Source: Bacteroidota bacterium
GTDB taxonomy: Bacteria > Bacteroidota > Bacteroidia > AKYH767-A > 2013-40CM-41-45
Assembly: GCA_016708785.1 (NCBI GenBank)
Contig: JADJFC010000006.1
Span: forward strand, 185,411-249,410
Direction of reading: 5' to 3'
Length of the DNA: 64,000 bases
Positions 2,979-23,655 of the stretch are shown piece by piece. The notes beneath the pieces are model-generated. The model searched no databases. It saw only the letters and a program-made list of their open reading frames with translations, and had not been told where the DNA came from. Within the stretch, counting starts at the first letter, position 1, and the number at the start of each line of letters is the position of its first letter. The position numbers were made by a program, and so were the translations under genes.

Positions 2979-3046
2979 ATCAAGGGTCAAAGGTCAAGGG
3001 TCAAAGGTTAGTAACTGCTACTGACCTTTGACCCTTGACCTTTGAC
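2979..3046. repeat. Family A palindromic intergenic element built from GTCAAAGG/GTCAAGG words (REP-like)
   Basis: Left arm TCAAGGGTCAAAGGTCAAGGGTCAAAGGT, 14-nt loop, then its near-exact reverse complement GACCTTTGACCCTTGACCTTTGA. Homologous copies at 11618-11683 and 13748-13803. Confidence 0.85.
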
Positions 3047-3052
3047 TTGTTT

Positions 3053-4237
3053 TCAACTCGACCTCCCATTAAACGGATTAAACCGCCTCCGTTCGTACTC
3101 GGTTCCGACGGCGCGCTGGATGGATGTTTCGCCATAGCGTTTTCGCATTCTGTCCATGGCCTGGTACAGCTTTACCATTTCTTCACTGTCTTCAAAAAGA
3201 TTGATCTGTTGTCCGCCGCCGACAAGGTGACTAAAACGTACACCAATCAGACGAATGAGCATTCGCCGTTGAAAAAGTTTATCGAATAATTCTTTCGCGC
3301 GATCGATGAGGGTCTGATCATTCGAAGTATAGGGGATGCGCGATTGTGTTGTGTGCGTATCAAAATTGGAATATCGGATCTTTATCGTGACGCATGCTGT
3401 TAACTTATCCTCCGAACGCAATTGAAAAGCCAGTTTTTCCGTCATGGCAACGATGAGCGATTTCAGGTGATTGACGTCTATGGTATCCTGATCGAATGTC
3501 TCCTCGGTAGAAAGTGACTTGCGTTCATTGTATGGCTCTACCGGTGAATTGTCAATGCCGTTCGCTTTCCGCCAGATGGCAATACCATTTTCGCCCAGTA
3601 CATTTTCCATTAATTCCACAGGCATCTTCTGCACGGTCTCAATTTTTTCTACGCCCATGGTCCGCAGTAAATTCGCCGTCTTCTCTCCTACCATTGGAAT
3701 CTTCCGAATGGGCAATGGTGCCAGAAATGTTTTTTCATTCCCGAAATCAATTTTCTGCTGACCGTTGGGTTTGGCCTCGCCGGTAGCTACTTTCGAAACT
3801 GTTTTATTTTCCGACATGCCGAAAGAGATGGGCAGGCCCGTCTCTTTGGTAATTCTGTGACGCAATTCCGTTGCCCATTTATAACAACCGAAAAAACGGT
3901 CCATTCCACTCAGGTCGATATAAAATTCATCGATCGACGATTTTTCGTAGATGGGAACATTCTCCTTAATAATATCCGTGACTGTTTCCGACAACTGACT
4001 GTACCGCTCATAATCGCCGCGAACGATTATGGCATCGGGACAAAGTCGGCGGGCCAGTTTCATGGGCATGGCCGAATGAACACCATATGCGCGGGCTTCG
4101 TAACTGCATGATGCCACTACGCCGCGATCGCTCGTTCCGCCGATCAGAACGGGTTTTCCCTTCAGTTTCGGGTAATCTAAACACGAAACGGAAACGAAAA
4201 ACGAATCCAGATCCATATGTACTATTGAACGATGCAT
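3053..4237 (-). CDS. dinB: DNA polymerase IV (Y-family translesion polymerase)
   Basis: 394-aa ORF. N-terminus VHMDLDSFFVSVSCL matches the conserved Y-family start (HxDxDxFFAxVE). Pol IV palm/finger motifs and a little-finger C-terminus are present. TTG/ATG start region at 4237. Confidence 0.88.
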   Translation of the reverse strand: MHRSIVHMDLDSFFVSVSCLDYPKLKGKPVLIGGTSDRGVVASCSYEARAYGVHSAMPMKLARRLCPDAIIVRGDYERYSQLSETVTDIIKENVPIYEKSSIDEFYIDLSGMDRFFGCYKWATELRHRITKETGLPISFGMSENKTVSKVATGEAKPNGQQKIDFGNEKTFLAPLPIRKIPMVGEKTANLLRTMGVEKIETVQKMPVELMENVLGENGIAIWRKANGIDNSPVEPYNERKSLSTEETFDQDTIDVNHLKSLIVAMTEKLAFQLRSEDKLTACVTIKIRYSNFDTHTTQSRIPYTSNDQTLIDRAKELFDKLFQRRMLIRLIGVRFSHLVGGGQQINLFEDSEEMVKLYQAMDRMRKRYGETSIQRAVGTEYERRRFNPFNGRSS

Positions 4238-4562
4238 GGCGAGAGGGGAAATTGGTAGCTCCGGTGTGGCTCAAGGAATTCGACAACCAAAACCACACCG
4301 GCTAAAGCATTTCTGCAAAGCAACCAAGTCATTAAACAAACCTTCAATAGATTGTACAACAATCATATTGATTGATTCCAATATAATCTATATATTTGCG
4401 CTGTGCAAGAAAAAATAATCAACAAGTTGGTAAATGGTAGCGGCTGAGGGAATTAAAAAGTGAGTGGTAAGTGGTGAGTAGCACTACAGAAGTAATTCAT
4501 CGAAACAATTCGAAATCCGAATTCGCAATTATTAATTATTCATTCTTAATTAAAAAAGAAAA

Positions 4563-5366
4563 ATGGTTTTTAACAACAACATCAAAATTCTACGTCAGCG
4601 TAAAAATCGTACGCAGGACATTATCGCAGGCGAATTGAACGTGAGTCGTTCGACGGTGAACAGCTATGAGAATGGCAGTATTAAAAATCCGACACTGGAT
4701 GCGCTAATGATGTTTTCGAAATACTATAAAGTATCGATTGACACATTGGTAAAAATCGACCTGTCGAAGCTTTCCGAATTTCAGCTTTCGGAGTTGGAGA
4801 GGGGAAATGATGTATATGTAACCGGTTCGCGTTTGCGTGTAATTGCAACAACTGTTGATAGCCAGAACAGAGAGAACATTGAAGTTGTTCCACTCAAAGC
4901 GAAGGCCGGCTACAAAAATGGTTTTGCTGATCCGGAGTTCATAAAAAAACTTCCGACGTTTCAGTTGCCGATCTTATTCAATGACAGAAAATATAGAATG
5001 TTTCAGATTAGTGGCGACTCTATGTTACCAATTCCGGATAAGTCGTATGTGATCGCTGAATACCTTGAAAACTGGTACGACATAAAAGATGGCGAAGCCT
5101 ATGTGTTACTTACTCAGGAAGAAGGAATTGTTTTCAAGATGGTTGAAAATAATCTGAAGAAGAAACGGTCACTTACACTGAAATCGCTGAATACAATTTA
5201 CAATCCATATGACTTAAACGTAAGCGACATCAAAGAAGTATGGAAATTCTGCAATTACATGAGCACAGAAATTCCGGAAAGTAATTTTGCGAAAGATGAA
5301 TTGATTGACAAGTTGTCGAAGTTGGAGACGGAGGTGCAGTCCATTCGGAATATTATTTCTAATTGA
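4563..5366 (+). CDS. XRE-family HTH + S24 peptidase (LexA/CI-like self-cleaving repressor)
   Basis: N-terminal HTH (ILRQRKNRTQDIIAGELNVSRSTVNSYENG). C-terminal S24 catalytic Ser motif QISGDSMLP with a downstream Lys (VFKMV). Divergent from dinB. Confidence 0.8.
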   Translation: MVFNNNIKILRQRKNRTQDIIAGELNVSRSTVNSYENGSIKNPTLDALMMFSKYYKVSIDTLVKIDLSKLSEFQLSELERGNDVYVTGSRLRVIATTVDSQNRENIEVVPLKAKAGYKNGFADPEFIKKLPTFQLPILFNDRKYRMFQISGDSMLPIPDKSYVIAEYLENWYDIKDGEAYVLLTQEEGIVFKMVENNLKKKRSLTLKSLNTIYNPYDLNVSDIKEVWKFCNYMSTEIPESNFAKDELIDKLSKLETEVQSIRNIISN

Positions 5367-5409
5367 TTGGTGAGTAGTAAGTGGTGAGTGGTAAGTAGCA
5401 ATACTTACA
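5367..5409. repeat. Family C repeat (GGTGAGT/GGTAAGT words)
   Basis: TTGGTGAGTAGTAAGTGGTGAGTGGTAAGTAGCAATACTTACA. Homologous copies at 4460-4487, 5511-5552 (inverted), 22424-22478 (inverted) and 37095-37130. Confidence 0.8.
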
Positions 5410-5429
5410 TATTTGCAATAAGAGTCAAG

Positions 5430-5490
5430 AAATAAATGGATAAAAAAGAGGTTGTTGAATCAATCGTCTCTTTTTTATCCATTTATTTTT
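5430..5490. terminator. Bidirectional rho-independent terminator between convergent S24-repressor and PPK2 genes
   Basis: Perfect 21-bp stem AAATAAATGGATAAAAAAGAG / CTCTTTTTTATCCATTTATTT with an 17-nt loop, A-run before and T-run after. Flanked by an inverted pair of family-C repeats. Confidence 0.7.
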
Positions 5491-5510
5491 TTGTAAGCAA
5501 TTTCGTTCTG

Positions 5511-5552
5511 GCAAGTATTGCTAATTACCACTCACCAATTACTACTTACCAG
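5511..5552. repeat. Family C repeat, inverted orientation
   Basis: GGCAAGTATTGCTAATTACCACTCACCAATTACTACTTACCAG is the reverse complement of the 5367-5409 copy at about 85 percent identity. It overlaps the last codons and stop of the PPK2 gene. Confidence 0.75.
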
Positions 5553-6426
5553 ATTCCTTTAGCAGGCTCTTTTTTGCCACCGCCATACTATCTGCATCGG
5601 CTGTACTAACGGCAGGAAATTTCGGATTTATTTCTTTTAATTTATCAAGAATGATTTTTCCAATAAGTTGATGGGTATAATCTTTATCGTCAGCAGGAAT
5701 GATATACCATGGAGATTTTTTAGTGCTGGTATTTTTGAGGGCTTGTTCATATGCTGATTGATAATCATCCCAGAAACCTCTTTCAGTCAGATCAGAGGGA
5801 GAAAACTTCCAGTGCTTTTCTTTATTGTCAATCCGTTCGATAAATCGTTTCGCTTGTTCTTTCTTTGATAAGTGAAGGAAGAACTTTAAAACATGTGTTC
5901 CATTCTGAATAATATTCTTTTCGAAATTAACGATTTGCTTGTATCGATTCTTCCAGAATTTTTCATCAATATTTGCCTTCGTAAAAACACCGGGTAAGCG
6001 TTCAGCTAAAACAATTTCAGGATGGACTTTCGCAATAAGCACATTTTCATAATGCGAACGATTGAAAATAGTGATATGTCCATGCTCGGGTAATTTCTGG
6101 ATATGACGCCACAAATAATCATGCTCCAATTCTTGTGTCGAGGGATGCTTGAAACTATGCACTATCACTCCTTGCGGATTCACACCATTCATGATGTGCT
6201 TGATCGTACTGTCTTTTCCGGATGCATCCATTCCTTGTAAAATGATCAGCAATGATTGGCGATCTTCTGCGTAGAGCTTGTATTGGTAATCTGAAATCTC
6301 ATCAATATCTTTTTGCAGGCTAGCTTTGAATGCTTCCTTATCGATTTTTTTTGATCCGGAACCGGTTGGAAACTTTGAGAGTTTGACTTTGGCGTTGGGT
6401 TTGATTTTGAAGTTGGCGATGTTCAT
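5542..6426 (-). CDS. ppk2: Polyphosphate kinase 2 family (polyphosphate:nucleotide phosphotransferase)
   Basis: 294 aa. PPK2 Walker A-like motif ILQGMDASGKDSTIKH and a lid region. The size is typical of single-domain PPK2. Confidence 0.8.
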   Translation of the reverse strand: MNIANFKIKPNAKVKLSKFPTGSGSKKIDKEAFKASLQKDIDEISDYQYKLYAEDRQSLLIILQGMDASGKDSTIKHIMNGVNPQGVIVHSFKHPSTQELEHDYLWRHIQKLPEHGHITIFNRSHYENVLIAKVHPEIVLAERLPGVFTKANIDEKFWKNRYKQIVNFEKNIIQNGTHVLKFFLHLSKKEQAKRFIERIDNKEKHWKFSPSDLTERGFWDDYQSAYEQALKNTSTKKSPWYIIPADDKDYTHQLIGKIILDKLKEINPKFPAVSTADADSMAVAKKSLLKESGK

Positions 6427-6708
6427 TGTTCTATGATTTATATTTCTCTTTATAAAATATTAAAGACTAAATTTTATAGAGGAAAGGTAATAATTTTAAT
6501 GTCAGATTAAATAAAAAATAACGTGAACACTTAGAACAAAACCCTACTAACAATCCCATTTGCATTGAAACCTAAAAGATTCCTCCTGGATGACCGATCG
6601 CCATCTTTTATATGTCGGAGGGATCTTTTAGGTCAACAAGTCAGACTTTCTATTTAATGCACTTACAATATCTTCATCTTTTCACGAATGAAAATGAAAA
6701 CATGTCTT

Positions 6709-7959
6709 TTACAAATTTAATTTGTTTCCAAAATCTACTTGGTAAAACTTTTCCATTTTGAATGAATCATCAAAATATTCATCTGAAGTAAATTTAAAAT
6801 AGAATACATTATCAATTCTATATGCTTCTACAATTCGCCATGATCCAAATTGAAATGAAACAGTCGGATCCTTAAGACTGTAAAGTTCAAAACCTCCTGA
6901 ACCATAATACTGATATACTCCTACTACATATGAATTGTCGACAAACATTGGCTCTCCCTCAATCGAAATAAGTCTTCTTTTTTCCGGATTATACAATTCA
7001 TAACCCTCCCACTCATATTCAAATCTTTTAATCACAATATATCCACATCGAAAGTCTGCTAAACGATACGTACCAGCGTAAGGAAAATTGGGATTATAGG
7101 TGTTGCGACAAACTTCAAATTGTTTCGGCTTACTATTTAATTTCAAGCAATTTTTCTTATAAATAAAATCGTTAGTATAAATCATTTTCAACGAATCTAT
7201 AACTTTTTTTGTCTTCAGCTCATTTGATTTATCTTCATCTTCAATAACTTTATATAAACTATCTCTATCACCACTTGTTTCATATCGATGATTTACCAAT
7301 GTTGTGTTTCTATGTGCAATCTTATTAAATTCTTCTTCGCCAATTTTTTTTAATGTTGGCTTCAAAGTATTACTTTCCAAATTCCAAAACTTGAACTCTT
7401 TGTTCTTTCTTACCAAACATGTTTCGACAACTGACCTTTTACTATATGTTCCGGCATAATAATCATCGTCTGAATTCAAATCAAAATTTACATAATTCAT
7501 GCCTTGAAGATCTGTCAGAATAAAAGTAGTAGTACTCAGGAAATCCATCGCAAGAATATCATCAATTTTCGATATAAGGAATTCACTATCCGGGATTTTT
7601 ACAAAAATAGTGTCATTCGAAGTTCCGATTAACTTCATTTTTATTTTCCCGCAAAATTTGTTCGTATTAATAAAATCTATTGTCTTTGACAGACTCAATG
7701 AATCCGGATTCAAACATCTCGTATGAAAAGGAAGAAACCTTTCAGCACTAAATCCCCATGAAAACATGGTATCTCTAGTGAACCGATTAGCTTTTAATTC
7801 ATTTATCAATGCAAGGTCTGAAATAGAATCTACATTGATTACAATCAATTCTTCTTTTGGAGCCTCATTTTTACTAAATGGAACATTGCAAGAAATGTTC
7901 GAAATTCCAAAAACACTCAAAATAAATACAGCAATACACTTCTCAATAATTAATCTCAT
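6709..7959 (-). CDS. Hypothetical secreted/lipoprotein, AT-rich, no recognisable domain
   Basis: 416-aa ORF with an N-terminal signal-like segment FILSVFGISNISC. 5-bp gap to the downstream OM beta-barrel gene. Confidence 0.55.
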   Translation of the reverse strand: MRLIIEKCIAVFILSVFGISNISCNVPFSKNEAPKEELIVINVDSISDLALINELKANRFTRDTMFSWGFSAERFLPFHTRCLNPDSLSLSKTIDFINTNKFCGKIKMKLIGTSNDTIFVKIPDSEFLISKIDDILAMDFLSTTTFILTDLQGMNYVNFDLNSDDDYYAGTYSKRSVVETCLVRKNKEFKFWNLESNTLKPTLKKIGEEEFNKIAHRNTTLVNHRYETSGDRDSLYKVIEDEDKSNELKTKKVIDSLKMIYTNDFIYKKNCLKLNSKPKQFEVCRNTYNPNFPYAGTYRLADFRCGYIVIKRFEYEWEGYELYNPEKRRLISIEGEPMFVDNSYVVGVYQYYGSGGFELYSLKDPTVSFQFGSWRIVEAYRIDNVFYFKFTSDEYFDDSFKMEKFYQVDFGNKLNL

Positions 7960-7964
7960 ATAAA

Positions 7965-8552
7965 TTAAAATTTATATGTCAATCCTGTTTGCAATAACGA
8001 TTTTGCAGCTCCGAATTCAACATACATTCCGAAATTATCTGTAAAATAAATTCTTGTACCAATTGAAGCTTCGAAACCCATTGGCGAGTCAATAATTGTA
8101 TAACTATTTAAATATCCTCTTCCGGTTTCATAAGTCATTTTAGCATACCTATAACCTAATCCAACTCCAACATAAGGCTCAAAACCCTCTGAGGAAGGAA
8201 AATACATATTAAATCTCGCGAGAACGCTAAATGTTGAATACGTATCCGATTTACTATAATAATCCGGGTAAGGATCATAGTAAGAATAGCCCATTTCATA
8301 ATCTGCATAGCTAAAATTTACACCGAAGCCAATTTTACCGGAGATTGCCTTTTCATATTTAAGATAAACCGGGCCGGTTATTGCCCTTGTATAATTTGGT
8401 TCAAGCTCACCTATAATTATTACACTTCCGCCCCAGGTTCCCAAACCATAGCCGATGGAAAAACTATTTAATCCGGCACTTTTTGTTTGAGCAAATGAAG
8501 CTTTAAACCAAAGTAATACAACTATGAGAAGAAAATAAAGTTTTAACTTCAT
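7965..8552 (-). CDS. Small outer-membrane beta-barrel protein (OmpW/porin-like fold)
   Basis: 195 aa. Signal peptide ending FAQ. Alternating aromatic/Gly beta-strand pattern. C-terminal TYKF aromatic terminus typical of OMPs. Confidence 0.65.
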   Translation of the reverse strand: MKLKLYFLLIVVLLWFKASFAQTKSAGLNSFSIGYGLGTWGGSVIIIGELEPNYTRAITGPVYLKYEKAISGKIGFGVNFSYADYEMGYSYYDPYPDYYSKSDTYSTFSVLARFNMYFPSSEGFEPYVGVGLGYRYAKMTYETGRGYLNSYTIIDSPMGFEASIGTRIYFTDNFGMYVEFGAAKSLLQTGLTYKF

Positions 8553-8565
8553 CTAATGATAGAAA

Positions 8566-10206
8566 TTATTTCACAACACAAAAATGCGCCGTCATGTTCA
8601 TATCGGGCCCATTTAACTTTATAAAATAATAACCGGAAATTAAATCTGAAGTATTCAATACTACATGACCGTCTGATGAATTATTCAAACTGATAATCTT
8701 TACCAAACTTCCCATTGAATTAAAAACAGAGAGACGACCTTCATTATTTTTAGTAGCAGGAAGAATAATATTTAGCTCATCAGTTGCCGGATTCGGATAT
8801 ACTGAAAGCAATCCTTGCTGAATATTAGTAATATTGGTCAATGTTCCGTTCGGGCGGATTCGGCTTGCACAAATATTTTCCATGTTCTCTCTCCATATTG
8901 CTGTTACAGTGCCATCCAATGAAGGAACAAGAACATAGTCATCATAAAATGGCAAATTGCTAATGTTAACTGCAATGCCATTTTGTTGCCATAATATAGA
9001 ACTGTCCGGTGCAATTTGTTGCGCACGAAATTTACTTCCAACAGTAAAAGTTGCCACAACATTTGTTCCTACTTTAACAAGTTTCGGGTAAGGGTTATAA
9101 CTTGGCAAATCTGAAAGAAGGATCCCGTCCGGTGTCCATAATGAATTTCCGGCAGTATCCAGTTTTTGCATATACACTTTGTAATTAGCTGCTCCAAGAC
9201 GAGGATCATTCCAGATAACAGAAATGGTGTCGTTGGAAATAATTACCTCAGGGTTTGCTTTATAACCGGAAACTGTACAAATTGGTTTGGCACCGCCTCC
9301 GCCCCAAGGCAAATTACCATCAGGGTTGATCTTTGCAATGTAAACATCGCCCGGACTGTTACTATCCCAAACAACGTAAGCATTTGTATCATTATCACAA
9401 ACTACTTTCCATTGATCTCCTCCTCTACCTCCTGCAACAGTAGATATATCAACAGGAGAGGAAATAGTTGAATTTCCTGCTTCATCAAAATGTCCGACAA
9501 AAATATGCGAACCTAAACCACCTGTGGCAGTGGCTACATAGAAACCATTTTTATGATCAGGAGCAGTACGATAATAATATCCACCGCCAGAGTAACTTTT
9601 TGAATTAAGAGGGTAAACCAAATTTCCTGTATTGTCAATATTATTAAAACTGTAATAAGTATTTCCTCCACTTGGAACGAGACCAAAAGTTATTGTTGCT
9701 CCATTATCATTTGAAAAAATATCCAGGTTATCAGTAGAAACATAAATTATACCCCCTTGTTTATTTCCAACAAGAGTTGCAGACGACCATTGAGGAGTAC
9801 CGGCATTATCAAAATATTGACAAAGTAAAGTATCACCACCAACACCAAAACCTCCTTGAATCCATGCCAATAAAATTCCGGATTGCCATTGGATTGCATC
9901 CATCAACCAGATCTCTTTGCCGGCAGCTTGTGTGAAAAATTTGCCATTTGACGCCCACTGAGGATTTCCTAATGAATCAAGATGTTGCCCATATATAGAT
10001 GAACCTACTAATCCATCGCGTTTATCAAGCCAGAAAGAAAACGTTCCTCCATTTCCATCACTGAAAGCACGTACTGCTCTTTGTGACCCGGTTGCATTAC
10101 ACACAAAATAAGTTTGAGTGGAATCATCCAAAAATTGGGCGTTCACATTGTATGTTACCAATGTCAAAATGAAGATTAAAACTGTCGAAAGTAGATTTTT
10201 TTTCAT
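8566..10206 (-). CDS. T9SS-secreted protein with beta-propeller-like repeats and type-A C-terminal sorting domain
   Basis: 546 aa. Signal peptide ending NAQ. Repeated W/G-rich blades. C-terminus VYPNPATDELNIIL...GYYFIKL matches the T9SS CTD. Confidence 0.75.
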   Translation of the reverse strand: MKKNLLSTVLIFILTLVTYNVNAQFLDDSTQTYFVCNATGSQRAVRAFSDGNGGTFSFWLDKRDGLVGSSIYGQHLDSLGNPQWASNGKFFTQAAGKEIWLMDAIQWQSGILLAWIQGGFGVGGDTLLCQYFDNAGTPQWSSATLVGNKQGGIIYVSTDNLDIFSNDNGATITFGLVPSGGNTYYSFNNIDNTGNLVYPLNSKSYSGGGYYYRTAPDHKNGFYVATATGGLGSHIFVGHFDEAGNSTISSPVDISTVAGGRGGDQWKVVCDNDTNAYVVWDSNSPGDVYIAKINPDGNLPWGGGGAKPICTVSGYKANPEVIISNDTISVIWNDPRLGAANYKVYMQKLDTAGNSLWTPDGILLSDLPSYNPYPKLVKVGTNVVATFTVGSKFRAQQIAPDSSILWQQNGIAVNISNLPFYDDYVLVPSLDGTVTAIWRENMENICASRIRPNGTLTNITNIQQGLLSVYPNPATDELNIILPATKNNEGRLSVFNSMGSLVKIISLNNSSDGHVVLNTSDLISGYYFIKLNGPDMNMTAHFCVVK

Positions 10207-10389
10207 AGTATTGTGAATAGTGGTGTGGTGAGAATATCAATTATGTTGAATTTAGAATTAAAAACGACAACCAAACATGTGATTTTATTCAATTGACAGA
10301 CAGACTAAAGGTATAGAATAATAAATGAACTCAAATATTAATTTTAAGGTAATTAGCACCATCGATATTAGTTATTCACTATTCGTTAA

Positions 10390-11595
10390 TCAATGGTGTT
10401 TCTCCAACGACCTCACTGCAAAAAACACAGAAAAAATCGTCAATACCGCTCCCATTAAAAATGGCGCTCCCGGAAAATAAATCGGAGCATTTGCAGATGT
10501 AAAAAAGGAAAACAGATTGGTCATCATTAACGGACCAACGATCGATGTCACACTGATCAAACTTGTCAATGCGCCTTGCAACTCGCCTTGTTCGTTAGGC
10601 GGAACTTGCCCAGACATGACACCTTGCAATGCCGGACCACAGATTCCTCCAAGTGAAAATGGAACAACAATGGCAAACATCATCCAGCTTTTTGTAGCAA
10701 ATGCAAACAAAGTAAATCCGATTACATACAGACTAAGTCCTAAATAGATAGATCGCTTCTGTCCTAATTTTGGAATTACAATGCGGATCAAGCCTGCTTG
10801 AACAATTGCTATCATTAATCCGACAAAGCCTAGTGAATAACCAACCATACGTTCAGTCCACTTGAATTTCTCCATTGTGTAGAATGTCCATGTGCTTTGG
10901 GTAGCATGACTTGCGATGTAAATAAAAACGAGACAAGCGACTAAACTAAGTATCACCGGATAATGCGCTAATCGTTTTAGTGAACCGACAGGGTTCGCTC
11001 TTTTCCAATCAAATTTTCGTCGATGATCTTTGTCTAACGATTCAGGCAAAATAAAATATCCGTAGGCAAAGTTTAACAATGCCAATCCCGCTGCAGCAAA
11101 AAACGGAATCCGTGAGCCATAATGTCCGAGGACTCCACCAAGCACGGGCCCAATAATAAATCCTAGACCGAATGCTGCACCGATCAATCCAAAATTCTGC
11201 GCACGTTTTTCCGGCGTACTGATATCGGCTATGTATGCAGTCGCAGTTGTAAAACTTGCTCCAGTGATTCCTGATATCAATCTTCCTATGAACAACCAGA
11301 CAATCGTCGGTGCAAAACCCATCAGCAAATAATCAATTCCAAATCCGAAAAGCGAGATCAACAAAACCGGTCGACGTCCATACCTGTCGCTCAATGCGCC
11401 AATGATGGGAGAAAACAAAAATTGCATCGTCGCATATGCAAACATCAACCAACCCGCATACGTTGATGCCATACTCAAATCACCACCAATCATTTCTTCG
11501 ATCAACTTCGGCAATACCGGAATGATGATGCCCAGGCCAATTACGTCGATTAGCATGGTGATGAAGATGAACGGTAATGCGTTTTTTGTTTTCAT
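10390..11595 (-). CDS. TetA-family 12-TMS MFS efflux transporter (DHA1, tetracycline-resistance-protein-like)
   Basis: 401 aa. Motif [19 protein letters not shown] [16 protein letters not shown] motif near the C-terminus. Collinear with TetA class proteins. Confidence 0.75.
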
Positions 11596-11617
11596 TTTTG
11601 AAAGGAGTTAAAATAAA

Positions 11618-11683
11618 AGGTCAAGGGTCAAAGGTAAAGGGTCAGACGTGGATAAATGACCTTTGACCCTTGACCTTTGACCC
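11618..11683. repeat. Family A palindromic element (GTCAAAGG words)
   Basis: AAGGTCAAGGGTCAAAGGTAAAGGGTCAG / loop / TGACCTTTGACCCTTGACCTTTGACCC. Lies between the MFS gene start and the DinB_2-family gene stop. Confidence 0.85.
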
Positions 11684-11698
11684 ACGGATTATATCAAC

Positions 11699-12199
11699 TC
11701 ATTTCATTGTAGGCATTCCGTATTTCGCCCAATCTTCCTTAGTCGGGCCATAAGCACCAATGACAGGTAAACCAAGCATTCGCATCAGTACAACCATTTC
11801 TGCACGGTGATGAGCTTCATGTTTGATCAATATTGTCAGGGTTGTTCCACGCTTCCAATTGTCACCATACATATTATCTTCTTTTTGCAGATCGTCAACT
11901 GTCCAGTTCTTTTTTAGCTCTTCTACGATTGACTTTGCTCCTTTTTCATAAGCCTCACAAAGCTCCTTTACTGTTTCACCGGAATAATCTTCTTGTTCCT
12001 TGATGTCAATTTTCAAACCCATCTTGGCCGGCATCTCTTGCTGAGTATGAATAATGTGCCAAGCAAGAAAACCGAGTGTTCTTACATTGGGGTGAACGAC
12101 TTTTGTCAGGCTTTCATCCGTTAGGTTCTTGAACAAATTCAGTGTAGACTGACTTTCATAACTCCAGTCACTGTAGAAATCCTCTAATGTTCTATACAT
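11699..12199 (-). CDS. DinB/YfiT-like (DinB_2 superfamily) putative metal-dependent hydrolase
   Basis: 166 aa four-helix-bundle-type protein. His motifs AWHIIHT and KHEAHHRAEM are characteristic of the DinB_2/DUF664 family. Confidence 0.6.
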   Translation of the reverse strand: MYRTLEDFYSDWSYESQSTLNLFKNLTDESLTKVVHPNVRTLGFLAWHIIHTQQEMPAKMGLKIDIKEQEDYSGETVKELCEAYEKGAKSIVEELKKNWTVDDLQKEDNMYGDNWKRGTTLTILIKHEAHHRAEMVVLMRMLGLPVIGAYGPTKEDWAKYGMPTMK

Positions 12200-12306
12200 A
12201 ATTATGTGTTTTTAATAAGTAAGAAATATGCAGACAAATAAACAGAATAAATCTTTGCTCAACAATGAGTTCAGAAAAATGACAATAAATTAACTTATGC
12301 AAATTA

Positions 12307-12633
12307 TCAATGCTTCAATTTATTCAGGAAATTGATATCCACTGAACCGGTATTCCTGAAGATCATTGTTAAAATTGCAAGTCCAACAGCAACTTCTGCT
12401 GCAGCAACTGCCATGATGAAGAACACAAAAACCTGTCCTGCAGCATCGCCGAAATAAGTTGAGAAAGCAACCAAGAGTAAATTCACTGCATTCAGCATTA
12501 ATTCAACACACATGAAAATGATGATAGCATTTCTTCTGAAAAGAACACCCAACACACCGATACAAAACAGCAGTGTACTTAAAATTACATAATTATTAAG
12601 AGGTATAGTTTGAAAGATCGATCCCATTGTCAA
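12307..12633 (-). CDS. nuoK: NADH-quinone oxidoreductase subunit K
   Basis: 108 aa with 3 TMS. The conserved ND4L/NuoK pattern and operon position after nuoJ. Confidence 0.9.
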
Positions 12634-12634
12634 A

Positions 12635-13128
12635 TTAATTAATTTCTTTTTTACCTAACATAACTGTTCCTACCATTGCAGTAAGAAGTAATATTGATGA
12701 CACTTCAAATGGAAGTGCATATTCGCGAAATAAAACCAAACCAAGATTCTCAATTAAGCCTACATCTGAATTTGGTACAGAAGCAACTGTAGTAGTAGCT
12801 TGACGAAGCGCCCCAACCAAAACAGTCATTAATAATCCACCGGAAACAGTTGCAGCAACTTTTAACCATTTACTCTTATGCGGCTCAACATTGGAATTTA
12901 AATTTAGCATCATGATCACATATAAGAACAAGACCATAATTGCTCCGGCATATACTATGATGTGAACAGCTGCAAGGAACTGAGCATTCATTAAGACATA
13001 ATGCCCGGCAATGGCGAAAAGCAAATGATCAGGTACAATACACTATGCACAGGATTCTTTGATATCACGACCATCAATGCACTTAATATTGCAAGGAATG
13101 CCAGGAAATAAAATAGCGAAATATTCAT
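12635..13128 (-). CDS. nuoJ: NADH-quinone oxidoreductase subunit J (apparent single-base frameshift near 13017-13020)
   Basis: ATG at 13128 gives [37 protein letters not shown]. It then hits a stop after 45 codons. The ORF-track ORF 12635-13024 (TTG start) continues [31 protein letters not shown] in the adjacent frame. One extra T in the TTTT run would fuse both into a canonical about 165-aa NuoJ. Confidence 0.8.
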
Positions 13129-13144
13129 TTTGGGTGTTCTTATT

Positions 13145-13729
13145 TTAATTCCAGCAATTACAATTTGTTATGCTGAAGATTCTTATTCTTTTGAATTCTA
13201 TCACTTCTGAGGTTTGGCGATCACTGATGTCTATTCTTTCATTTACACCTTCCACCAATTTATCTTTTCCGTAGATCATTTCTGATCTGTTCAATGATGT
13301 TGCAACAATTCTATCTGTTAAGAATATCGCTTCCTTTGGACATGCTTCTTCACACAATCCGCAGAAGATGCACCGCAACATGTTGATCTCATACGTAGAA
13401 GCATATTTTTCTTCACGATATAATTTCTCTTCGCCTTTATTCCGCTCAGCAGCAACCATTGTAATTGCTTCAGCAGGACAAGACAAAGCGCAAAGTCCGC
13501 AAGCTGTACAACGTTCTGCACCATTTTCATCGCGTTTCAAAACATGCTGACCACGATATACAGGAGCGAAATCTCTTTTGACTTCGGGATACGATATTGT
13601 CGCCTTCTTCTTAAAGAAATGCCTCAATGTGATCTTCATGCCATTTAAAATAGCAGGCAAATAGATCTTTTCCGCGAAGGTCAGTTCTTGTTTTACTACT
13701 TGTTTGCTTCTATTGGTGAGGCTTTGCAT
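13145..13729 (-). CDS. nuoI: NADH-quinone oxidoreductase subunit I (2x[4Fe-4S] ferredoxin)
   Basis: 194 aa. Two CxxCxxCxxxCP motifs (CTACGLCALSCP, CIFCGLCEEACP). Confidence 0.92.
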   Translation of the reverse strand: MQSLTNRSKQVVKQELTFAEKIYLPAILNGMKITLRHFFKKKATISYPEVKRDFAPVYRGQHVLKRDENGAERCTACGLCALSCPAEAITMVAAERNKGEEKLYREEKYASTYEINMLRCIFCGLCEEACPKEAIFLTDRIVATSLNRSEMIYGKDKLVEGVNERIDISDRQTSEVIEFKRIRIFSITNCNCWN

Positions 13730-13747
13730 CTTTTTAATATTGTTTTA

Positions 13748-13803
13748 GGTCAAGGGTCAAAGGTCAAGGGTCAGGCTTAACCTTTGACCCTTGACCTTTG
13801 ACC
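13748..13803. repeat. Family A palindromic element inside the nuo operon (nuoH-nuoI spacer)
   Basis: AGGTCAAGGGTCAAAGGTCAAGGGTCAGG / cttaa / CCTTTGACCCTTGACCTTTGACC. It occupies most of the 81-bp nuoH-nuoI intergenic spacer. Confidence 0.85.
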
Positions 13804-13810
13804 TAATCAA

Positions 13811-14842
13811 CTAAGAAAGTTTTCCCATCCACCACATCACCATCCCCGTTACAAAGATGTTGGCTATAGCTAATGGCAATAATATTTTCCATCCCAGGTT
13901 CATCAACTGATCATAACGGAAGCGCGGAAGTGTCCAGCGGATCCACATGAATAGGAAGATGAAGAAGAATATTTTTCCGAATAAGAACATGGTTCCAATC
14001 ATGCTTAACCAATTTGGATCTGTTACGAAACGACCGATGAAAGGCATGTTGTATCCACCAAAATAAAGTGTACTGATAACAGCTGATGAAATAAACATGT
14101 TGATGTATTCAGCGAATAAGTAGAATCCAAGTTTCATGGAACTATACTCTGTATGATAACCACCAACCAATTCCGTTTCACATTCTGGAAGATCGAATGG
14201 CGCACGATTGGTCTCAGCAAATGCACAGATAATAAATATCAAAAATCCAAAAGGCTGATAAAACACATTCCAGTGTCCGCCGGCTTGTTGTTCTGCAATT
14301 TCCCGAACACTCAATGTTCCTGTCATCATGATAAGTGCAATGATAGAAAGTCCCATTGCAATTTCATAACTGATCATCTGTGAAGAAGCGCGTAGTGCAC
14401 CAAGCAATGAATATTTATTATTCGAAGCCCAACCGCCAATCATAATTCCATAAACACCGATTGACACAACACCAAAAATGTAAAGTATTCCAATATTCAC
14501 ATCTGTTGCCTGAATCGGGTAAAAATTACCGCCAATTGTTAACCCTTTTCCCCATGGAATTACTGCACTTGTCATGCAGGCCGTCATCATTGCTAAACTC
14601 GGACCGAGAATGAAAAGAAATTTATTCGACACATTTGGAATGATCTCTTCTTTCATGAACATCTTCACTCCATCTGCCATAGGCTGTAAAATGCCAAAAG
14701 GGCCTGCGCGATTCGGACCAAGGCGATCCTGCATAAAGGCCGCCACTTTCCGTTCTGCATACGTAGAGTACATTGCAACTACCAGCGAGATCAGAAAGAC
14801 TGATACGATGATTATTATTTTTATGAGGAGGTAGGTGGACAT
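13811..14842 (-). CDS. nuoH: NADH-quinone oxidoreductase subunit H
   Basis: The conserved NuoH core is present. The ORF-track start at 14884 adds MRINDKRKTINKKR, which is a translation of the family-D repeat. The likely start is the internal ATG giving MSTYLLIKIIIIV... Confidence 0.88.
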   Translation of the reverse strand: MSTYLLIKIIIIVSVFLISLVVAMYSTYAERKVAAFMQDRLGPNRAGPFGILQPMADGVKMFMKEEIIPNVSNKFLFILGPSLAMMTACMTSAVIPWGKGLTIGGNFYPIQATDVNIGILYIFGVVSIGVYGIMIGGWASNNKYSLLGALRASSQMISYEIAMGLSIIALIMMTGTLSVREIAEQQAGGHWNVFYQPFGFLIFIICAFAETNRAPFDLPECETELVGGYHTEYSSMKLGFYLFAEYINMFISSAVISTLYFGGYNMPFIGRFVTDPNWLSMIGTMFLFGKIFFFIFLFMWIRWTLPRFRYDQLMNLGWKILLPLAIANIFVTGMVMWWMGKLS

Positions 14843-14843
14843 T

Positions 14844-14917
14844 CGTTTCTTGTTTATCGTTTTTCGTTTATCGTTTATCCTCATTCGATACGCGAAAGAC
14901 GATAAACGATAAACGAC
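14844..14917. repeat. Family D palindromic element (CGTTTATCG words) in the nuoG-nuoH spacer
   Basis: TTTCTTGTTTATCGTTTTTCGTTTATCGTTTATCC / loop / CGATAAACGATAAACGAC. It abuts the nuoH start codon. Confidence 0.8.
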
Positions 14918-14924
14918 ATTGCAA

Positions 14925-15920
14925 TTAACTATTATACATTTCTTTTCCGCCGACTAAATTCTGGACAACGTTCACATCATTCAGCAATGGCTTGTGGGCT
15001 GGTTCTTCAAGAGTGTAATGATTTTGTGAAATCACAGAGTGACGATCCAGATTTGCAGGGCCATCGATCTTCCAGTCACTTGTTGCCTTCTTTTCGAAAC
15101 GGCAGTCGTTACAGATCCAATCTTTCACTTCGCCGTATTTATCTTTTCGTCCTGTTACACGATACACTTCTTCGCCTTTCAACCACAGTGTAACTTTTCC
15201 TGCACACTTCGGACAATCACGGTGAGCATCGACAGGATTAGCAAACCACACACGACTTTTGAAACGGAATGTACGATCAGTCAATGCACCAACCGGACAA
15301 ACATCGATCATGTTTCCGGAGAAATCATTATCAACTACATTCTGAATATATGTACTGATCTCAGAAACATCTCCACGATTCATGACACCATGAACACGCT
15401 TGTCTGTGATTTGATCAGCCACTTTCACACAACGATAACACAAAATGCATCGCGTCATGTGTAGTTTAATTTTCGAACCGATATCTATTTTTTCAAACGT
15501 ACGGCGAGAAAATTCATAACGTGTTTTTGCAAGTCCGTGCTCGTAAGCCAGATCCTGCAAATGACATTCTCCGGCTTGATCACAGATCGGACAATCTAGC
15601 GGATGGTTGATCAACAAAAACTCAACTACACCAGCACGCGCTTCCATCAAATCAGGTGAAGTTATATTCTGCACTTCCATTCCATCCATTACCGTTGTTC
15701 TACAAGAAGCAACAGGTTTAGGCATTGGGCGAGGATCTTTTTCGGAACCTTTGGTTACTTTTACGATGCAAGTACGGCAGTAGCCGCCACTTGTCTTTAA
15801 TGAAGTATAATAGCACATCGCCGGCGGAACAATTTCCCCTCCAATTAAACGAGCAGCGTTAAGTATCGTTGTACCATCCGGCACTTCAATACTCTTTCCA
15901 TCAATTGTTACTTTTGCCAT
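14925..15920 (-). CDS. nuoG: NADH-quinone oxidoreductase subunit G, short form (2Fe-2S + 4Fe-4S domains only)
   Basis: 331 aa. N-terminal 2Fe-2S ferredoxin fold (CYYTSLKTSGGYCRTCIVKV). His/Cys 4Fe-4S motifs follow (HPLDCPICDQAGECHLQD; CILCYRCVKV). Confidence 0.85.
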   Translation of the reverse strand: MAKVTIDGKSIEVPDGTTILNAARLIGGEIVPPAMCYYTSLKTSGGYCRTCIVKVTKGSEKDPRPMPKPVASCRTTVMDGMEVQNITSPDLMEARAGVVEFLLINHPLDCPICDQAGECHLQDLAYEHGLAKTRYEFSRRTFEKIDIGSKIKLHMTRCILCYRCVKVADQITDKRVHGVMNRGDVSEISTYIQNVVDNDFSGNMIDVCPVGALTDRTFRFKSRVWFANPVDAHRDCPKCAGKVTLWLKGEEVYRVTGRKDKYGEVKDWICNDCRFEKKATSDWKIDGPANLDRHSVISQNHYTLEEPAHKPLLNDVNVVQNLVGGKEMYNS

Positions 15921-15941
15921 AATGGGCTAATCTTTTTTGTT

Positions 15942-17276
15942 TTAATAAACTGCATTACTTACTAATCTTTTCGGGTCAATGACTTTCTTCGAATTCCTAA
16001 CATGATCTTCGAATTCAGCTCTGAAATGTCTGATCGCACTAGCCACTGGCCATGCGGCAGCATCACCTAGCGGACAAATCGTCTTCCCTTCTATCTTCGA
16101 TTGAATGTCCCATAGTAAATCAACATCACTCAATGATCCATGTCCGTCGATGATTTTATGCAACACTTTTTCCATCCATCCTGTTCCTTCACGACAAGGC
16201 GAACATTGTCCGCAGCTTTCGTGGTGATAGAAACGAGTGAAGTTCCAAAGATTTTTTACGATGCTGGTTGTCTCATCCATTACGATGAAGCCACCTGAAC
16301 CAAGCATTGTTCCTGTTGCAAATCCGCCGTCAGCAAGTGATTCGTATGACATCAATCTTGGTTCACCGTTTGCTGTTTTCAAGATCAAGTCTGCAGGAAG
16401 AATTGGAACAGAAGAACCACCGGCTACAACTGCCTTCAATTTCTTTCCATTTTTAATTCCACCACACCACTCATCGCTGTAAATAAAATCTTCAACAGTA
16501 ATTCCCATTTCAATTTCATATACTCCGGGCTTGTTGATGTGACCACTGGCAGAAATTAGTTTCGTGCCTGTGCTTTTTCCAATACCAACTTTTGCATATT
16601 CATCGCCACCATTGTTGATGATTGGAACAACTGCAGCAATTGTCTCGACATTATTTACAACCGTCGGACAACCATAAAGTCCGGCTATTGCAGGGAATGG
16701 AGGTTTGATCCGTGGATTACCACGCTTTCCTTCCAGTGATTCAAGTAAAGCTGTTTCTTCTCCGCAGATGTATGCACCTGCTCCAACTTGAACATACAAG
16801 TCAAGAGAATAATCGCTTCCTAATATATTTTTTCCAAGCCAACCGTTAGCATAAGCTTCATCAATCGCTTGTTCTAATATTCTTGCAACATAAAAATATT
16901 CGCCACGGATGTAGATGTATGATGTATTCGCTCCTAGAGCAAAACTTGATGTGATCATTCCTTCGATCAATAGATGAGGAATGCGTTCCATCAGGTAACG
17001 ATCTTTGAAAGTTCCCGGCTCAGATTCATCGGCATTACAAACTATGTAACGCGCAACACCTTCAGGTTTTGCAAGGAAACTCCATTTCATTCCGGTAGGA
17101 AATCCTGCTCCACCTCGACCACGCAATCCGGATTTCTTTACTTCTTCGACAATGGCTTCAGGCGTCATTGTCTTGATCGCTTTTTCTACAGAAGCATAAC
17201 CGCCATTTTTACGATAAACTTCGTAAGTATTAATACCCGGAATGTGATCGTTATTTAAAAGTAGTTTCTTTCCCAT
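15942..17276 (-). CDS. nuoF: NADH-quinone oxidoreductase subunit F (NADH/FMN-binding, 4Fe-4S)
   Basis: 444 aa. GRGGAGFPTGMKW FMN/NADH-site motif. C-terminal CGQCSPCREG 4Fe-4S motif. Confidence 0.92.
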   Translation of the reverse strand: MGKKLLLNNDHIPGINTYEVYRKNGGYASVEKAIKTMTPEAIVEEVKKSGLRGRGGAGFPTGMKWSFLAKPEGVARYIVCNADESEPGTFKDRYLMERIPHLLIEGMITSSFALGANTSYIYIRGEYFYVARILEQAIDEAYANGWLGKNILGSDYSLDLYVQVGAGAYICGEETALLESLEGKRGNPRIKPPFPAIAGLYGCPTVVNNVETIAAVVPIINNGGDEYAKVGIGKSTGTKLISASGHINKPGVYEIEMGITVEDFIYSDEWCGGIKNGKKLKAVVAGGSSVPILPADLILKTANGEPRLMSYESLADGGFATGTMLGSGGFIVMDETTSIVKNLWNFTRFYHHESCGQCSPCREGTGWMEKVLHKIIDGHGSLSDVDLLWDIQSKIEGKTICPLGDAAAWPVASAIRHFRAEFEDHVRNSKKVIDPKRLVSNAVY

Positions 17277-17278
17277 AC

Positions 17279-17821
17279 TTAATTTCTTGCCTCCGCTTTA
17301 TCAGTGTATGTTTTACGCTTTCCGTCTGCACGAAATCTTTCTACCAATGAATCTACTTTATCAAGACTTAAATTTTCGTAATAGTCTGCTCCTACCTGCA
17401 TCATCGGTGCTGTACCGCATGAACCTAAACATTCAACAGATTTCAAAGTGAACATTCCATCTGAAGTTGTTTGTCCGGTTTTGATGTTCAACTTTTTCTC
17501 CAAATGAGAAATTACATCTTCAGCACCTAACAACCAGCATGAACTTGTTCTGCAAACTTCTATCACACATTTTCCAACAGGCTTCATGTTGAACATTGAA
17601 TAGAATGATGCAACTTCATAAACTTCTACTGGAAGAATTCCAATTACAGAAGCAACATAATCCATCGTCTCACTACTCAACCATCCATCAAATTCCGCCT
17701 GAGCGATATGCAGAATTGGAATCAATGCTGATTTTTGTTTTCCTTCAGGATAACGTTTCATCATTCTCTGTACAAGAGCAAGTGATTCGTCACTGAATTT
17801 TATTTCTTTACCGTTATTCAT
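17279..17821 (-). CDS. nuoE: NADH-quinone oxidoreductase subunit E (2Fe-2S)
   Basis: 180 aa. Thioredoxin-like 2Fe-2S Cys pattern (CRTSSC...CLGSCGTAPM). Confidence 0.9.
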   Translation of the reverse strand: MNNGKEIKFSDESLALVQRMMKRYPEGKQKSALIPILHIAQAEFDGWLSSETMDYVASVIGILPVEVYEVASFYSMFNMKPVGKCVIEVCRTSSCWLLGAEDVISHLEKKLNIKTGQTTSDGMFTLKSVECLGSCGTAPMMQVGADYYENLSLDKVDSLVERFRADGKRKTYTDKAEARN

Positions 17822-17848
17822 TTTTCTTCGGTCAAAATATTTTTTCGA

Positions 17849-19057: not shown

Positions 19058-19105
19058 TTTATATTTTTTGATTGTGATGATCAGTGAAGATCACACATCA
19101 TTCTA

Positions 19106-19636
19106 CTAATTAAGTTTTTTGAAATTGGCTTTGTCACGACCAAACATTGTATCGTCTTTGTCGTAACGCGTCAGATCTTCGACAGGGTATTCTTTTCTCA
19201 TTGGATGATAATCCATGTCTTCAACGTTGAGTATACGAGTCATTTTCGGATGACCTTTGAAACGAATTCCATAAAAGTCAAATGCTTCGCGCTCCATCCA
19301 ATTTGCTGAAGAGAATATCGGAATCAATGAATCGAATTGAAGATCGTTCAATGTTGTACTTGCTTTGAAACGAATACGAAGATTGAAGACCAGACTATGA
19401 AGTTGATACATCATAGTAAAAGGTTTCGGTTGATCAGGAGTATGAACTCCGCAAGCTGTTGTCAGATAACGAAATTGAAACCGTTCATCATCATACAGAA
19501 ATCGAAAAAGAGAAACGAGAATACTTTTATCGATTGTAATAACTGTAAAATCGTACTGTTGCTCCTTACTTAAAATTGCATCACCGAATTTTTCATTGAT
19601 GGCTTCTGCAACTTGATCTATTGTGGGCTTATCCAT
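19106..19636 (-). CDS. nuoC: NADH-quinone oxidoreductase subunit C
   Basis: 176 aa 30-kDa subunit homolog (ERE[AV]FD[FM]YGI motif: EREAFDFYGIRFKGHP). Confidence 0.88.
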   Translation of the reverse strand: MDKPTIDQVAEAINEKFGDAILSKEQQYDFTVITIDKSILVSLFRFLYDDERFQFRYLTTACGVHTPDQPKPFTMMYQLHSLVFNLRIRFKASTTLNDLQFDSLIPIFSSANWMEREAFDFYGIRFKGHPKMTRILNVEDMDYHPMRKEYPVEDLTRYDKDDTMFGRDKANFKKLN

Positions 19637-19642
19637 GATTAA

Positions 19643-20203: not shown

Positions 20204-20220
20204 TTCTTCCTTTCTAAAAA

Positions 20221-22387: not shown

Positions 22388-22423
22388 TAACGAAAAGTGA
22401 ATAATTACATCGATTAAGAAGCG

Positions 22424-23610: not shown

Positions 23611-23655
23611 GGTTCAAGGCCAACTTTGAACTTTGAACTCAGAACTTTGAACTCA
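23611..23655. repeat. Family F tandem repeat (ACTTTGAACT words) upstream of emrB-like gene
   Basis: GGTTCAAGGCCAACTTTGAACTTTGAACTCAGAACTTTGAACTC, then an A-run. Confidence 0.7.

Follow-up and report, generated by a model that had tools for sequence, protein, structure and literature searches.

Dispersed GGTCAAR-heptamer palindromes at gene 3' ends, including the nuo operon, of an uncultured Bacteroidota bacterium

Several described kinds of bacterial repeat resemble, each in part, the one considered here. In Escherichia coli, copies of the repetitive extragenic palindrome (REP) situated less than 16 nt from a stop codon stall ribosomes (PMC12306157), and in REPINs, which are inverted REP pairs, the distance between the two REPs is perfectly conserved (PMC3116915). 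A separate literature concerns tandem heptamers: TAACTGA repeats are found in Beggiatoaceae, Cyanobacteria and Bacteroidetes, with a single inverted case reported by MacGregor among the 170 sets of that study (PMC4679880), and a heptamer bias of long simple-sequence repeats together with its explanation by slippage goes back to Mrazek (2007), as summarised in PMC4679880. Paired arrays of 7-9-nt words in Geobacter metallireducens have been read as sites for IHF/HU-type proteins, a proposal left untried there (PMC2700814). Here we describe family A, palindromes with arms of GGTCAAR heptamers, starting from three copies (E1, E2 and E3) in a 64,000-nt stretch of contig JADJFC010000006.1, hereafter the window, from an uncultured Bacteroidota bacterium (class Bacteroidia) of activated sludge with a GC content of ~38%. 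Family A is a real member of a widespread, poorly described kind of bacterial repeat. The three copies are as follows.

2979..3046, unstranded: palindrome E1, which starts 6 nt after the dinB stop codon, with ~80 nt to the next minus-strand start
11616..11683, unstranded: palindrome E2, which starts 15 nt after the stop codon of a DinB-family gene, with 20-22 nt to the ATG of a major facilitator superfamily (MFS) transporter gene
13745..13806, unstranded: palindrome E3, which starts 4-7 nt after the nuoH stop codon, with 15-18 nt to the nuoI ATG

All three are intergenic, and E3 occupies nearly all of the nuoH-nuoI spacer (81 nt). Their sequence is distinctive within the window: the 16-mer GGTCAAGGGTCAAAGG, with up to two mismatches allowed, occurs 11 times in the 64 kb, always within E1-E3, against a mean of 0.01 in shuffled sequence. 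Each arm consists of 3-4 tandem heptamers in which GTCAAGG and GTCAAAG alternate with a strict 7-nt period, and Tandem Repeats Finder recovers from all six arms a period of 7 with 3.6-4.1 copies and a 14-nt super-period that matches at 100%. The 28-nt arms of E1 (2986-3013 and 3019-3046) are 96% complementary. Longest pairings are less perfect in E2 (11625-11649 with 11659-11683, 25 nt, 88%) and E3 (13745-13771 with 13780-13806, 27 nt, 89%), both of which also possess a fully complementary alternative (11616-11635 with 11659-11678, 20 nt; 13755-13773 with 13785-13803, 19 nt) that uses a register offset by one unit. An earlier note on this DNA, made from its letters, had placed three such palindromes at these sites and in this gene context (dinB, the DinB-family gene and the nuoH-nuoI spacer), built from one heptamer word; this description stands, with slightly extended limits for E2 (11616) and E3 (13745) and with two variants of the word. 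Its view that each array is followed by its exact reverse complement holds over 19-20 nt and fails over the longest arm register, because there the phases of the word's G and A variants do not match; likewise, 'near-identical' is apt for the arms, with their identical 23-nt core GTCAAAGGTCAAGGGTCAAAGGT, whereas the apical loops bear no relation to one another.

E1 is unchanged in seven independent contigs assembled from different wastewater samples and E3 in three conspecific contigs, whereas E2 is the same in two of three conspecific contigs and carries an indel inside one arm in the third (L117); the elements are therefore real sequence and not an assembly artefact. As 7 is coprime to 3, a YTTGACC arm contains TGA in all three frames within three units; a GGTCAAR arm has no stop codon in any frame. 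Each palindrome thus constitutes a three-frame translational stop on both strands. The stretch AGTTGA beside E1-E3, considered as a part of the element or as a target site, was rejected as a coincidence: other copies lack it, and at E1-E3 it takes in part of the stop codons.

How far does the family extend beyond this window? In a scan of named genomes, with one genome per species and three consecutive units required, (GGTCAAR)x3 arrays were found at at least 116 loci in at least 12 phyla; taxa among the matches listed are Nostocales, Bacteroidales, other Bacteroidota, Acidobacteriota, Gemmatimonadaceae, Geobacter, Nitrospirota, Planctomycetota and Chloroflexota. Direct-only arrays make up 106 of the 116 named-genome matches listed and 10 have an inverted partner, so that family A is the minority, paired form. 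Named-genome copies that have an inverted partner and lie on GC-rich contigs include those of Gemmatimonadaceae (L015, L057), Thiocapsa (L003) and a Chloroflexia metagenome-assembled genome (L087, 57% GC). In metagenomes, a pattern of two units, 3-33 nt and two inverted units matched at least 120 loci with at least 109 distinct elements. These comprise a low-GC class, on contigs of ~36-42% GC mostly from wastewater samples like the source of the window, and a high-GC class, on soil contigs of ~60-70% GC. The dispersed family surmised by the earlier note thus exists in metagenomes and named genomes alike, far beyond the three initial sites. Carriage by phages was dropped as an idea, the family-A pattern having 0 matches in viral contigs. 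In three marine contigs of 57% GC (L183, L197, L225), a short perfect GGTCAAR palindrome, AACGGGTCAAGGGTCAAAGGACCCTTGACCCTTGACGAGTT, lies within a long open reading frame (ORF) and represents either a coding occurrence or an artefact of ORF calling.

Across copies, the arms contain 2-5 units (most commonly 3), the innermost intact words are separated by a median of 19 nt (range 3-32 nt), and the flanks are unrelated. The arms also carry the mark of their lineage. In low-GC copies, 82% of neighbouring units alternate between the G and the A variant, where 49% would be expected, whereas high-GC copies have these variants in homogeneous runs. Towards the centre, 33 of 59 low-GC copies end in an in-phase truncated unit (GGTYA ... 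TRACC; GT[CTA]A ... T[GAT]AC), which leaves a unique, locus-specific apex of ~4-20 nt, and some centres are GC-rich stem-loops (for example in L174, L179, L240 and L231). Such lineage-specific arm features, shared by loci that are not linked, favour a common descent of the arms or their homogenisation, and speak against independent slippage at each locus. A period of seven is strongly preferred: the 1.79 Mb of retrieved DNA contain 239 perfect arrays of at least three units with period 7, whereas none of the periods 5, 6, 8, 9 and 10 has more than 9 (a ratio of >25 to 1). GGTCAAR arrays, which had been searched for, account for ~150 of the 239, and the ~88 others still far exceed the other periods (~10 to 1).

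Where do the copies lie relative to genes? Judged against a null derived from the same contigs by crude ORF mapping (ORFs of at least 100 aa), both GC classes avoid divergent spacers, which are promoter-only. Of the low-GC copies, 19 lie in co-directional, 14 in convergent and 2 in divergent spacers, where 31% divergent would be expected (P = 3e-4), and of the high-GC copies 23, 7 and 0 (25% divergent expected; P = 2e-4). Within co-directional spacers, 19 of 19 low-GC copies are closer to the stop codon than to the next start (median 32 versus 114 nt), as are 21 of 23 high-GC copies, which lie at a median of 5 nt from the stop. Family-A copies are gene 3'-end features in both classes, and in their placement beside stop codons they are REP-like, as the earlier note had it.

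As sense (minus-strand) RNA, the three elements are predicted to fold into strong hairpins with -46.2 kcal/mol for E1 (z = -9.3 versus shuffles), -41.4 for E2 (z = -7.7) and -41.9 for E3 (z = -8.7), and the plus-strand RNA folds about equally well. Whether sense or antisense RNA is the more stable, a comparison that reflects G-U versus A-C mismatches and serves as a test of RNA-level selection, splits 14:15 in the low-GC class (Wilcoxon P = 0.93) and 17:13 in the high-GC class (P = 0.45); as the two are indistinguishable, the symmetry of the palindrome is a property of the DNA. T-runs are scarce: just 4 of 27 copies in the low-GC class and 6 of 29 in the high-GC class have a run of at least four T within 10 nt downstream. 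On the sense strand, the 3' flanks of E1 (CUAAAACAAAUU) and E3 (UAAAACAAUAUU) contain no U-tract, and E2 alone is followed by UUUAUUUU. A scan for consensus terminators found none of E1-E3 on the sense strand and flagged E1 alone, on the antisense strand. With 20-22 nt (E2) and 15-18 nt (E3) to the next ATG there is no room for a promoter, and both elements must be transcribed through.

The same sites were then compared in relatives whose DNA identity to the window is 80-82% (each of L228, L244 and L247-L250), 74% (L245) or 70% (L246); the energies given are those of the folded spacer in kcal/mol. The nuoH-nuoI spacer holds family A in the window (-40.3) and in L228 (-37.7), where the E3 arms are 100% identical despite a divergence of ~19% overall and ~9% locally, a decayed family A in L244 (-20.8), no hairpin in L245 (-6.7), and in L246 an inserted zeta-toxin gene and no family A. 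At the 3' end of the DinB-family gene, family A of the window (-37.3) is replaced by GAATGAAGT words in L244 (-59.3) and L228, the gene itself not being at this position in L245 and L246. At the dinB 3' end, family A (-46.6) gives way to GTTTGAG/GTGTGTA words in L247-L250 (-38.5). Sister species (~81% identity) thus have palindromes of other words at two of the three sites. The nuoG-nuoH spacer, which is filled by a palindrome of CGTTTAT words in the window, has TCGTAAT words in L228, a one-arm remnant in L244 and nothing in L245 and L246. Within this genus-level clade, the hairpin sites persist and the word families turn over. The earlier note's picture of a dispersed one-word family is correct as far as it goes, and family A is one among several word families in the window that swap at orthologous sites: at least six further word-palindrome families are present (GGTGAGT/AGTAAGT, CGTTTAT, CACAAGT-type, TTCTGCG 9-10-mers, CACGAAT and GTTTAAA 9-mers).

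How might such elements arise, and what might they do? We tentatively favour, with somewhat less than even confidence, that family A consists of REP-like palindromes with microsatellite arms, which are made and kept symmetric at the DNA level and act in RNA as inter- or post-genic hairpins. We envision that slippage of heptamers, in line with the known bias of long simple-sequence repeats, would generate the arrays, an origin that fits the excess of period 7 and the proposal of Mrazek as summarised in PMC4679880. One arm might then be mirrored or corrected from the other across the hairpin, so that the arms stay symmetric, and some copying step would spread arms, but not centres, to new hairpin-prone 3' ends. 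Once transcribed, a stem of 19-28 bp (-38 to -46 kcal/mol) would form a hairpin between or after genes and not a terminator. Such a stem should block 3'-to-5' exonucleases, and it would be long enough to serve as a substrate of RNase III. This enzyme cuts double-stranded RNA of ~20 bp or more. Being within 15 nt of a stop codon, as in the case shown for E. coli REPs (PMC12306157), the stem would also be expected to interfere with the terminating ribosome. At the nuoH-nuoI and DinB-family/MFS junctions, where the next start codon is only 15-22 nt away, the hairpin must be read through and would set the relative stability or expression of the two parts of the operon.

This reading has several points to contend with. 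Every effect of family A at the RNA level, and with it the functions that the earlier note had suggested for elements of this sort (mRNA stability, decay barrier, insertion sequence (IS) target), is something that we infer for E1-E3 from sequence. There is neither an asymmetry between sense and antisense nor a U-tract, and hence no sequence sign of selection on the RNA. The hairpins are dispensable at greater evolutionary distance, as seen from E3, decayed in L244 and absent from L245 and L246, so that the placement is equally compatible with a selfish or neutral element that the genome tolerates; a selfish element of this sort accounts for the placement data nearly as well as the favoured reading does. 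Slippage and mirroring leave unexplained that the same 14-nt super-unit is present at dozens of unlinked loci, and that an AT-rich word is found in genomes of 60-70% GC. Finally, the gene maps behind the placement data are crude calls of ORFs of at least 100 aa, and the loci were found through an exact-pattern search, which biases the sample toward the pattern.

Alternatively, the palindromes may be selfish or neutral DNA without a role in RNA, a by-product of slippage, palindrome templating or other copying that persists where it does least harm, past stop codons and in convergent spacers. We consider this possible, if rather unlikely. It would account for the like folding of sense and antisense RNA without a U-tract, for the variable presence of E3 among relatives, for a word-palindrome (33551-33681) beyond the terminator at 33679-33713 and so probably outside the transcript, and for arms in L174, L179 and L240 that flank what appear to be pre-existing GC-rich terminator stems. 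Less easily accommodated are the E3 arms of L228, free of substitutions between diverged genomes, and the strong hairpins of other families that sister species keep at the same two sites, which suggest that a hairpin there is favoured or actively regenerated. Ordinary Rho-independent terminators would likewise be strong hairpins right after a stop codon; UUUUAUUUU follows E2, and copies are enriched in convergent spacers. Ordinary terminators are in use in Bacteroidota (PMC3152330, PMC7366714). In the window, one of them lies 16 nt past the lepA stop codon (33679-33713); it is conventional and bidirectional, with an A-tract, a GC-rich 16-bp stem and a T-tract, and its shape differs greatly from that of family A. 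We rejected the canonical terminator for the lack of a U-tract and the intra-operon position: E1 and E3 have no sense U-tract and few copies of the family have T-runs, the scan flagged E1 alone and only on the antisense strand, and E2 and E3 sit 15-22 nt before the next start in operons that need read-through. That family A consists of such terminators is thus very improbable. The TTCTGCG word-palindrome immediately beyond the conventional terminator probably lies outside the transcript.

The tandem heptamers may also be iterated sites, in inverted pairs, for a nucleoid-associated protein or a dedicated regulator. The symmetry at the DNA level, the same word across very different GC backgrounds, and conserved arms with varying centres and spacing, as in PMC2700814, would suit such a protein; yet with a period of 7 bp successive sites face different sides of the helix, the at least six other word families at equivalent sites and their swaps would need many interchangeable regulators, and no candidate protein was identified, so that we think this quite unlikely. 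We give as little credence to non-autonomous transposable elements (REPIN-like, foldback-like or akin to miniature inverted-repeat transposable elements (MITEs)) whose transposase is encoded elsewhere in the genome. Dozens of unlinked copies with the same lineage-specific G/A alternation and in-phase inner boundary would speak for mobility, as would three copies within 11 kb, the replacement of word families at orthologous sites, and the Geobacter IS elements that insert at a fixed distance from comparable sites (PMC2700814). Against it, flanking direct repeats of 0, 2, 3, 4 and 5 nt are present at 37, 43, 17, 3 and 2 copies versus 42, 39, 14, 5 and 1 under the null, and hence no target-site duplication exceeds chance; a GTAG/CGTC tag is found in only 4 of 102 elements; the number of arm units (2-5) and the spacer (3-32 nt) vary and the arms are not palindromic, unlike REPINs with their fixed spacing (PMC3116915); no RAYT (REP-associated tyrosine transposase), Y1 transposase, other transposase, reverse transcriptase or integrase domain is found in the ~51 ORFs of the window; and viral contigs yielded 0 matches. 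A bolder alternative, which we deem improbable, if a little less so than a conventional transposable element, is that GGTCAAR palindromes are the footprint of an undescribed cross-phylum, sequence-specific copying system. This could be a non-autonomous element of foldback-like type in bacteria, or an enzyme by which heptamer arrays are seeded or templated at gene 3' ends that form hairpins, and it would repeatedly overwrite the hairpins of terminators and of spacers within operons. Such a system would fit arms that move without their centres, the in-phase inner boundary, the 14-nt super-unit at unlinked loci and the AT-rich word in genomes of 60-70% GC.

The genes around E1-E3 belong largely to one minus-strand series, which runs from nuoA through nuoK (20592 to 12307) to the DinB-family gene, the MFS transporter gene, genes of type IX secretion system (T9SS) proteins, PPK2, dinB and a T9SS/PKD protein gene; between PPK2 and dinB, the plus strand carries a LexA-like gene. 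The features that adjoin the palindromes are these.

~2897, minus strand: ATG start of the T9SS/PKD protein gene, ~80 nt past E1
3053..4237, minus strand: dinB (DNA polymerase IV) with IMS, IMS_C and IMS_HHH domains; its stop codon TGA (3055-3053) adjoins E1
11595, minus strand: ATG start of the MFS transporter gene, 20-22 nt past the end of E2
11699..12199, minus strand: DinB-family gene (PF05163/PF12867); its stop codon TGA (11701-11699) is 15 nt from E2
13145..13729, minus strand: nuoI; its ATG (13729) is 15-18 nt past E3, across an A-rich unpaired stretch
13811..~14842, minus strand: nuoH; its stop codon TAG (13813-13811) adjoins E3

The true start of nuoH is probably near 14842, because database homologues have 343-344 aa. 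Several proteins of the window carry type IX secretion sorting tails, and no tRNA or tmRNA was found in its 64 kb. The nuo cluster (12307-20592) comprises nuoA-K only, nuoLMN being outside the window. A LexA-like repressor (helix-turn-helix domain and S24 peptidase) is divergent from dinB (3053-5366), and further downstream in the same direction L117 contains a PHP-domain DNA polymerase III alpha-type gene of 986 aa (14673-17633); together, this neighbourhood looks like the SOS-mutagenesis type. That two of the three family-A copies flank genes related to DNA damage is probably a coincidence. In relatives, stray small genes lie in or beside the nuo operon: a 23S_rRNA_IVP-family gene between nuoF and nuoG in L244 (2707-3102), the zeta-toxin gene together with a small ORF between nuoH and nuoI in L246 (11048-11823), and a PDDEXK_3 gene before nuoA in L245 (3676-4086). 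The spacers of this operon look like insertion-tolerant sites.

Repeats built from other words are common in the window, both as palindromes and as direct arrays without an inverted partner.

5368-5551, 14843-14916, 27517-27617, 33551-33681, 35565-35661, 43159-43239, 47093-47163, 51814-51875 and 55853-55921: other word-palindromes
4527-4552, 22369-22391, 23622-23655, 29361-29393, 37095-37130 and 47181-47203, also 31669-31705, 32498-32515 and 44407-44443: direct heptamer or 9-mer arrays

All of these palindromes except 51814-51875 lie just past stop codons or between convergent genes, and the CACGAAT family is also present in L124, L129, L141 and L167. The direct arrays are intergenic and include heptamers (for example GTGAGTG x5, AACTTTG and ATCGTAA) as well as CGCAGAAT(T/A) 9-mers. 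A small nuclease-family gene, PDDEXK_3 (PF13366; 35673-36050), has a TTCTGCG palindrome 11 nt past its stop codon, and the same gene family adjoins nuoA in L245. In L246 (13257-13856), inverted GTGAACA/GTGAATA/GCGAATA heptamer arrays ~550 nt apart, with ~20 units on one side, bracket several GC-rich hairpins of ordinary type downstream of nuoK; long centres, and not just short loops, can thus lie between word arms. In Calothrix parasitica NIES-267 (L054, ~4871-4960), GGTCAAA arrays abut TAACTGA x4, and elsewhere (L018, L024, L052, L067, L070) they abut the heptamers GTCCAAA, CGATAAC, GGAGTTA and CTCCCCA. Mosaics of several words are thus frequent among heptamer arrays.

If the hairpins do shape mRNA ends, they would represent a widespread, unannotated layer of intra-operon control in core operons such as that of complex I, in Bacteroidota and several soil phyla, for which post-transcriptional control has been little studied. 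Whatever their function, they join two separate literatures, on heptamer microsatellites and on REP-like palindromes, and the replacement of word families at the same sites across species offers a system for asking how identical short repeats seed unlinked loci, a question that dates from the reports on cyanobacterial short tandemly repeated repetitive (STRR) sequences and on TAACTGA in Beggiatoa. There is a practical side as well: perfect stems of 50-80 bp will give coverage dips and mis-assemblies, and predictors based on hairpins will label family-A palindromes as miRNA-like or terminator-like. Discovery of a dedicated mechanism of copying, or of a factor specific for the word, would make the interest high; as things stand it is moderate.

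How, then, does family A relate to described repeats? The earlier note knew of no catalogued family of this type. Rfam 15 gave 0 matches at gathering thresholds over the whole window, and a permissive search returned only sub-threshold eukaryotic miRNA-precursor models (24-34 bits versus thresholds of 59-100), which are generic long hairpins, and no bacterial RNA family; likewise, no description of a GGTCAAR palindrome family was found in a literature search that was aimed only partly at this lineage or word. The family is in this sense new, but its kind has precedents (PMC4679880, PMC2700814). Two other classes were considered and dropped. CRISPR arrays consist of direct repeats with regular spacing, which is lacking here. 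Integron attC sites have a position 3' of an ORF, a variable centre and a GTTRRRY core. The words of family A misfit that core, the ORFs of the window include no integrase, and the copies have housekeeping operons as neighbours.

With the REP sequences, bacterial interspersed mosaic elements and REPINs of Proteobacteria, family A has in common that it consists of extragenic palindromes at gene 3' ends and within operons (PMC3733652, PMC3116915, PMC12306157), of which there are several families per genome with turnover at orthologous spacers. Like REPs, it is present in many copies (at least 109 distinct elements in metagenomes) and favours the stop-codon side of spacers, with copies inside the 15 nt at which E. 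coli REPs stall ribosomes (PMC12306157). It differs in that its arms are microsatellites instead of a unique imperfect palindrome of 20-40 bp, in stems twice as long (E1-E3, at 55-68 bp, exceed the usual REP length of 20-40 bp), and in the absence of the GTAG/CGTC tag: CGTC lies within 8 nt of an end in 4 of 102 elements and GTAG in 0 of 102, and E1-E3 have neither, so that assignment to the GTAG/CGTC REPs was rejected. We also rejected the REPIN class, since the arms are direct heptamer arrays without an internal palindrome and the spacer varies where that of REPINs is fixed (no RAYT being seen in the 64-kb window), and the MITE class, for want of target-site duplications above chance, for the variable number of units per arm and for unrelated flanks. 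Eukaryotic Foldback transposons (Drosophila FB, Galileo, Tetris; PMC3573991, PMC4079207) offer a likeness in their inverted arms, which consist of short tandem repeats and vary in length, and in their centre, which varies or is missing. They are 100- to 1,000-fold larger, have target-site duplications and transposases that are known or suspected, and are a structural analogy that implies no homology.

The heptamer repeats (cyanobacterial STRR sequences, the long simple-sequence repeats of Mrazek, and TAACTGA; PMC4679880) come closer. Like these, family A has at least three head-to-tail copies of a 7-nt unit, is mostly intergenic, and has one word dispersed to many loci with a patchy distribution over several phyla (PMC4679880). 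The heptamer repeats, however, are direct arrays that typically lie just upstream of start codons, whereas E1-E3 and every match listed for the palindromic pattern are inverted pairs, and family A lies past stop codons. The paired class 1-3 'global regulator binding sites' of G. metallireducens (Aklujkar et al. 2009, PMC2700814), which form a class that is described but not formally defined and are compared here by that description, resemble family A in architecture: two arrays of 3-5 units of 7-9-nt words stand on opposite strands at a variable distance, in tens of copies and with several word families per genome (PMC2700814), as family A has 2-5 units per arm, a variable spacer and at least six other word families beside it in the window. 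Their words are different (GTTGCTYN, TCTCCGTS[Y], MTYCTGA), they belong to another phylum, and PMC2700814 reports neither an analysis of where they lie relative to stop codons nor a comparison across species. Yet one of the Geobacter pairs is likewise intra-operon, between proB and proA (PMC2700814), just as E3 lies between nuoH and nuoI.

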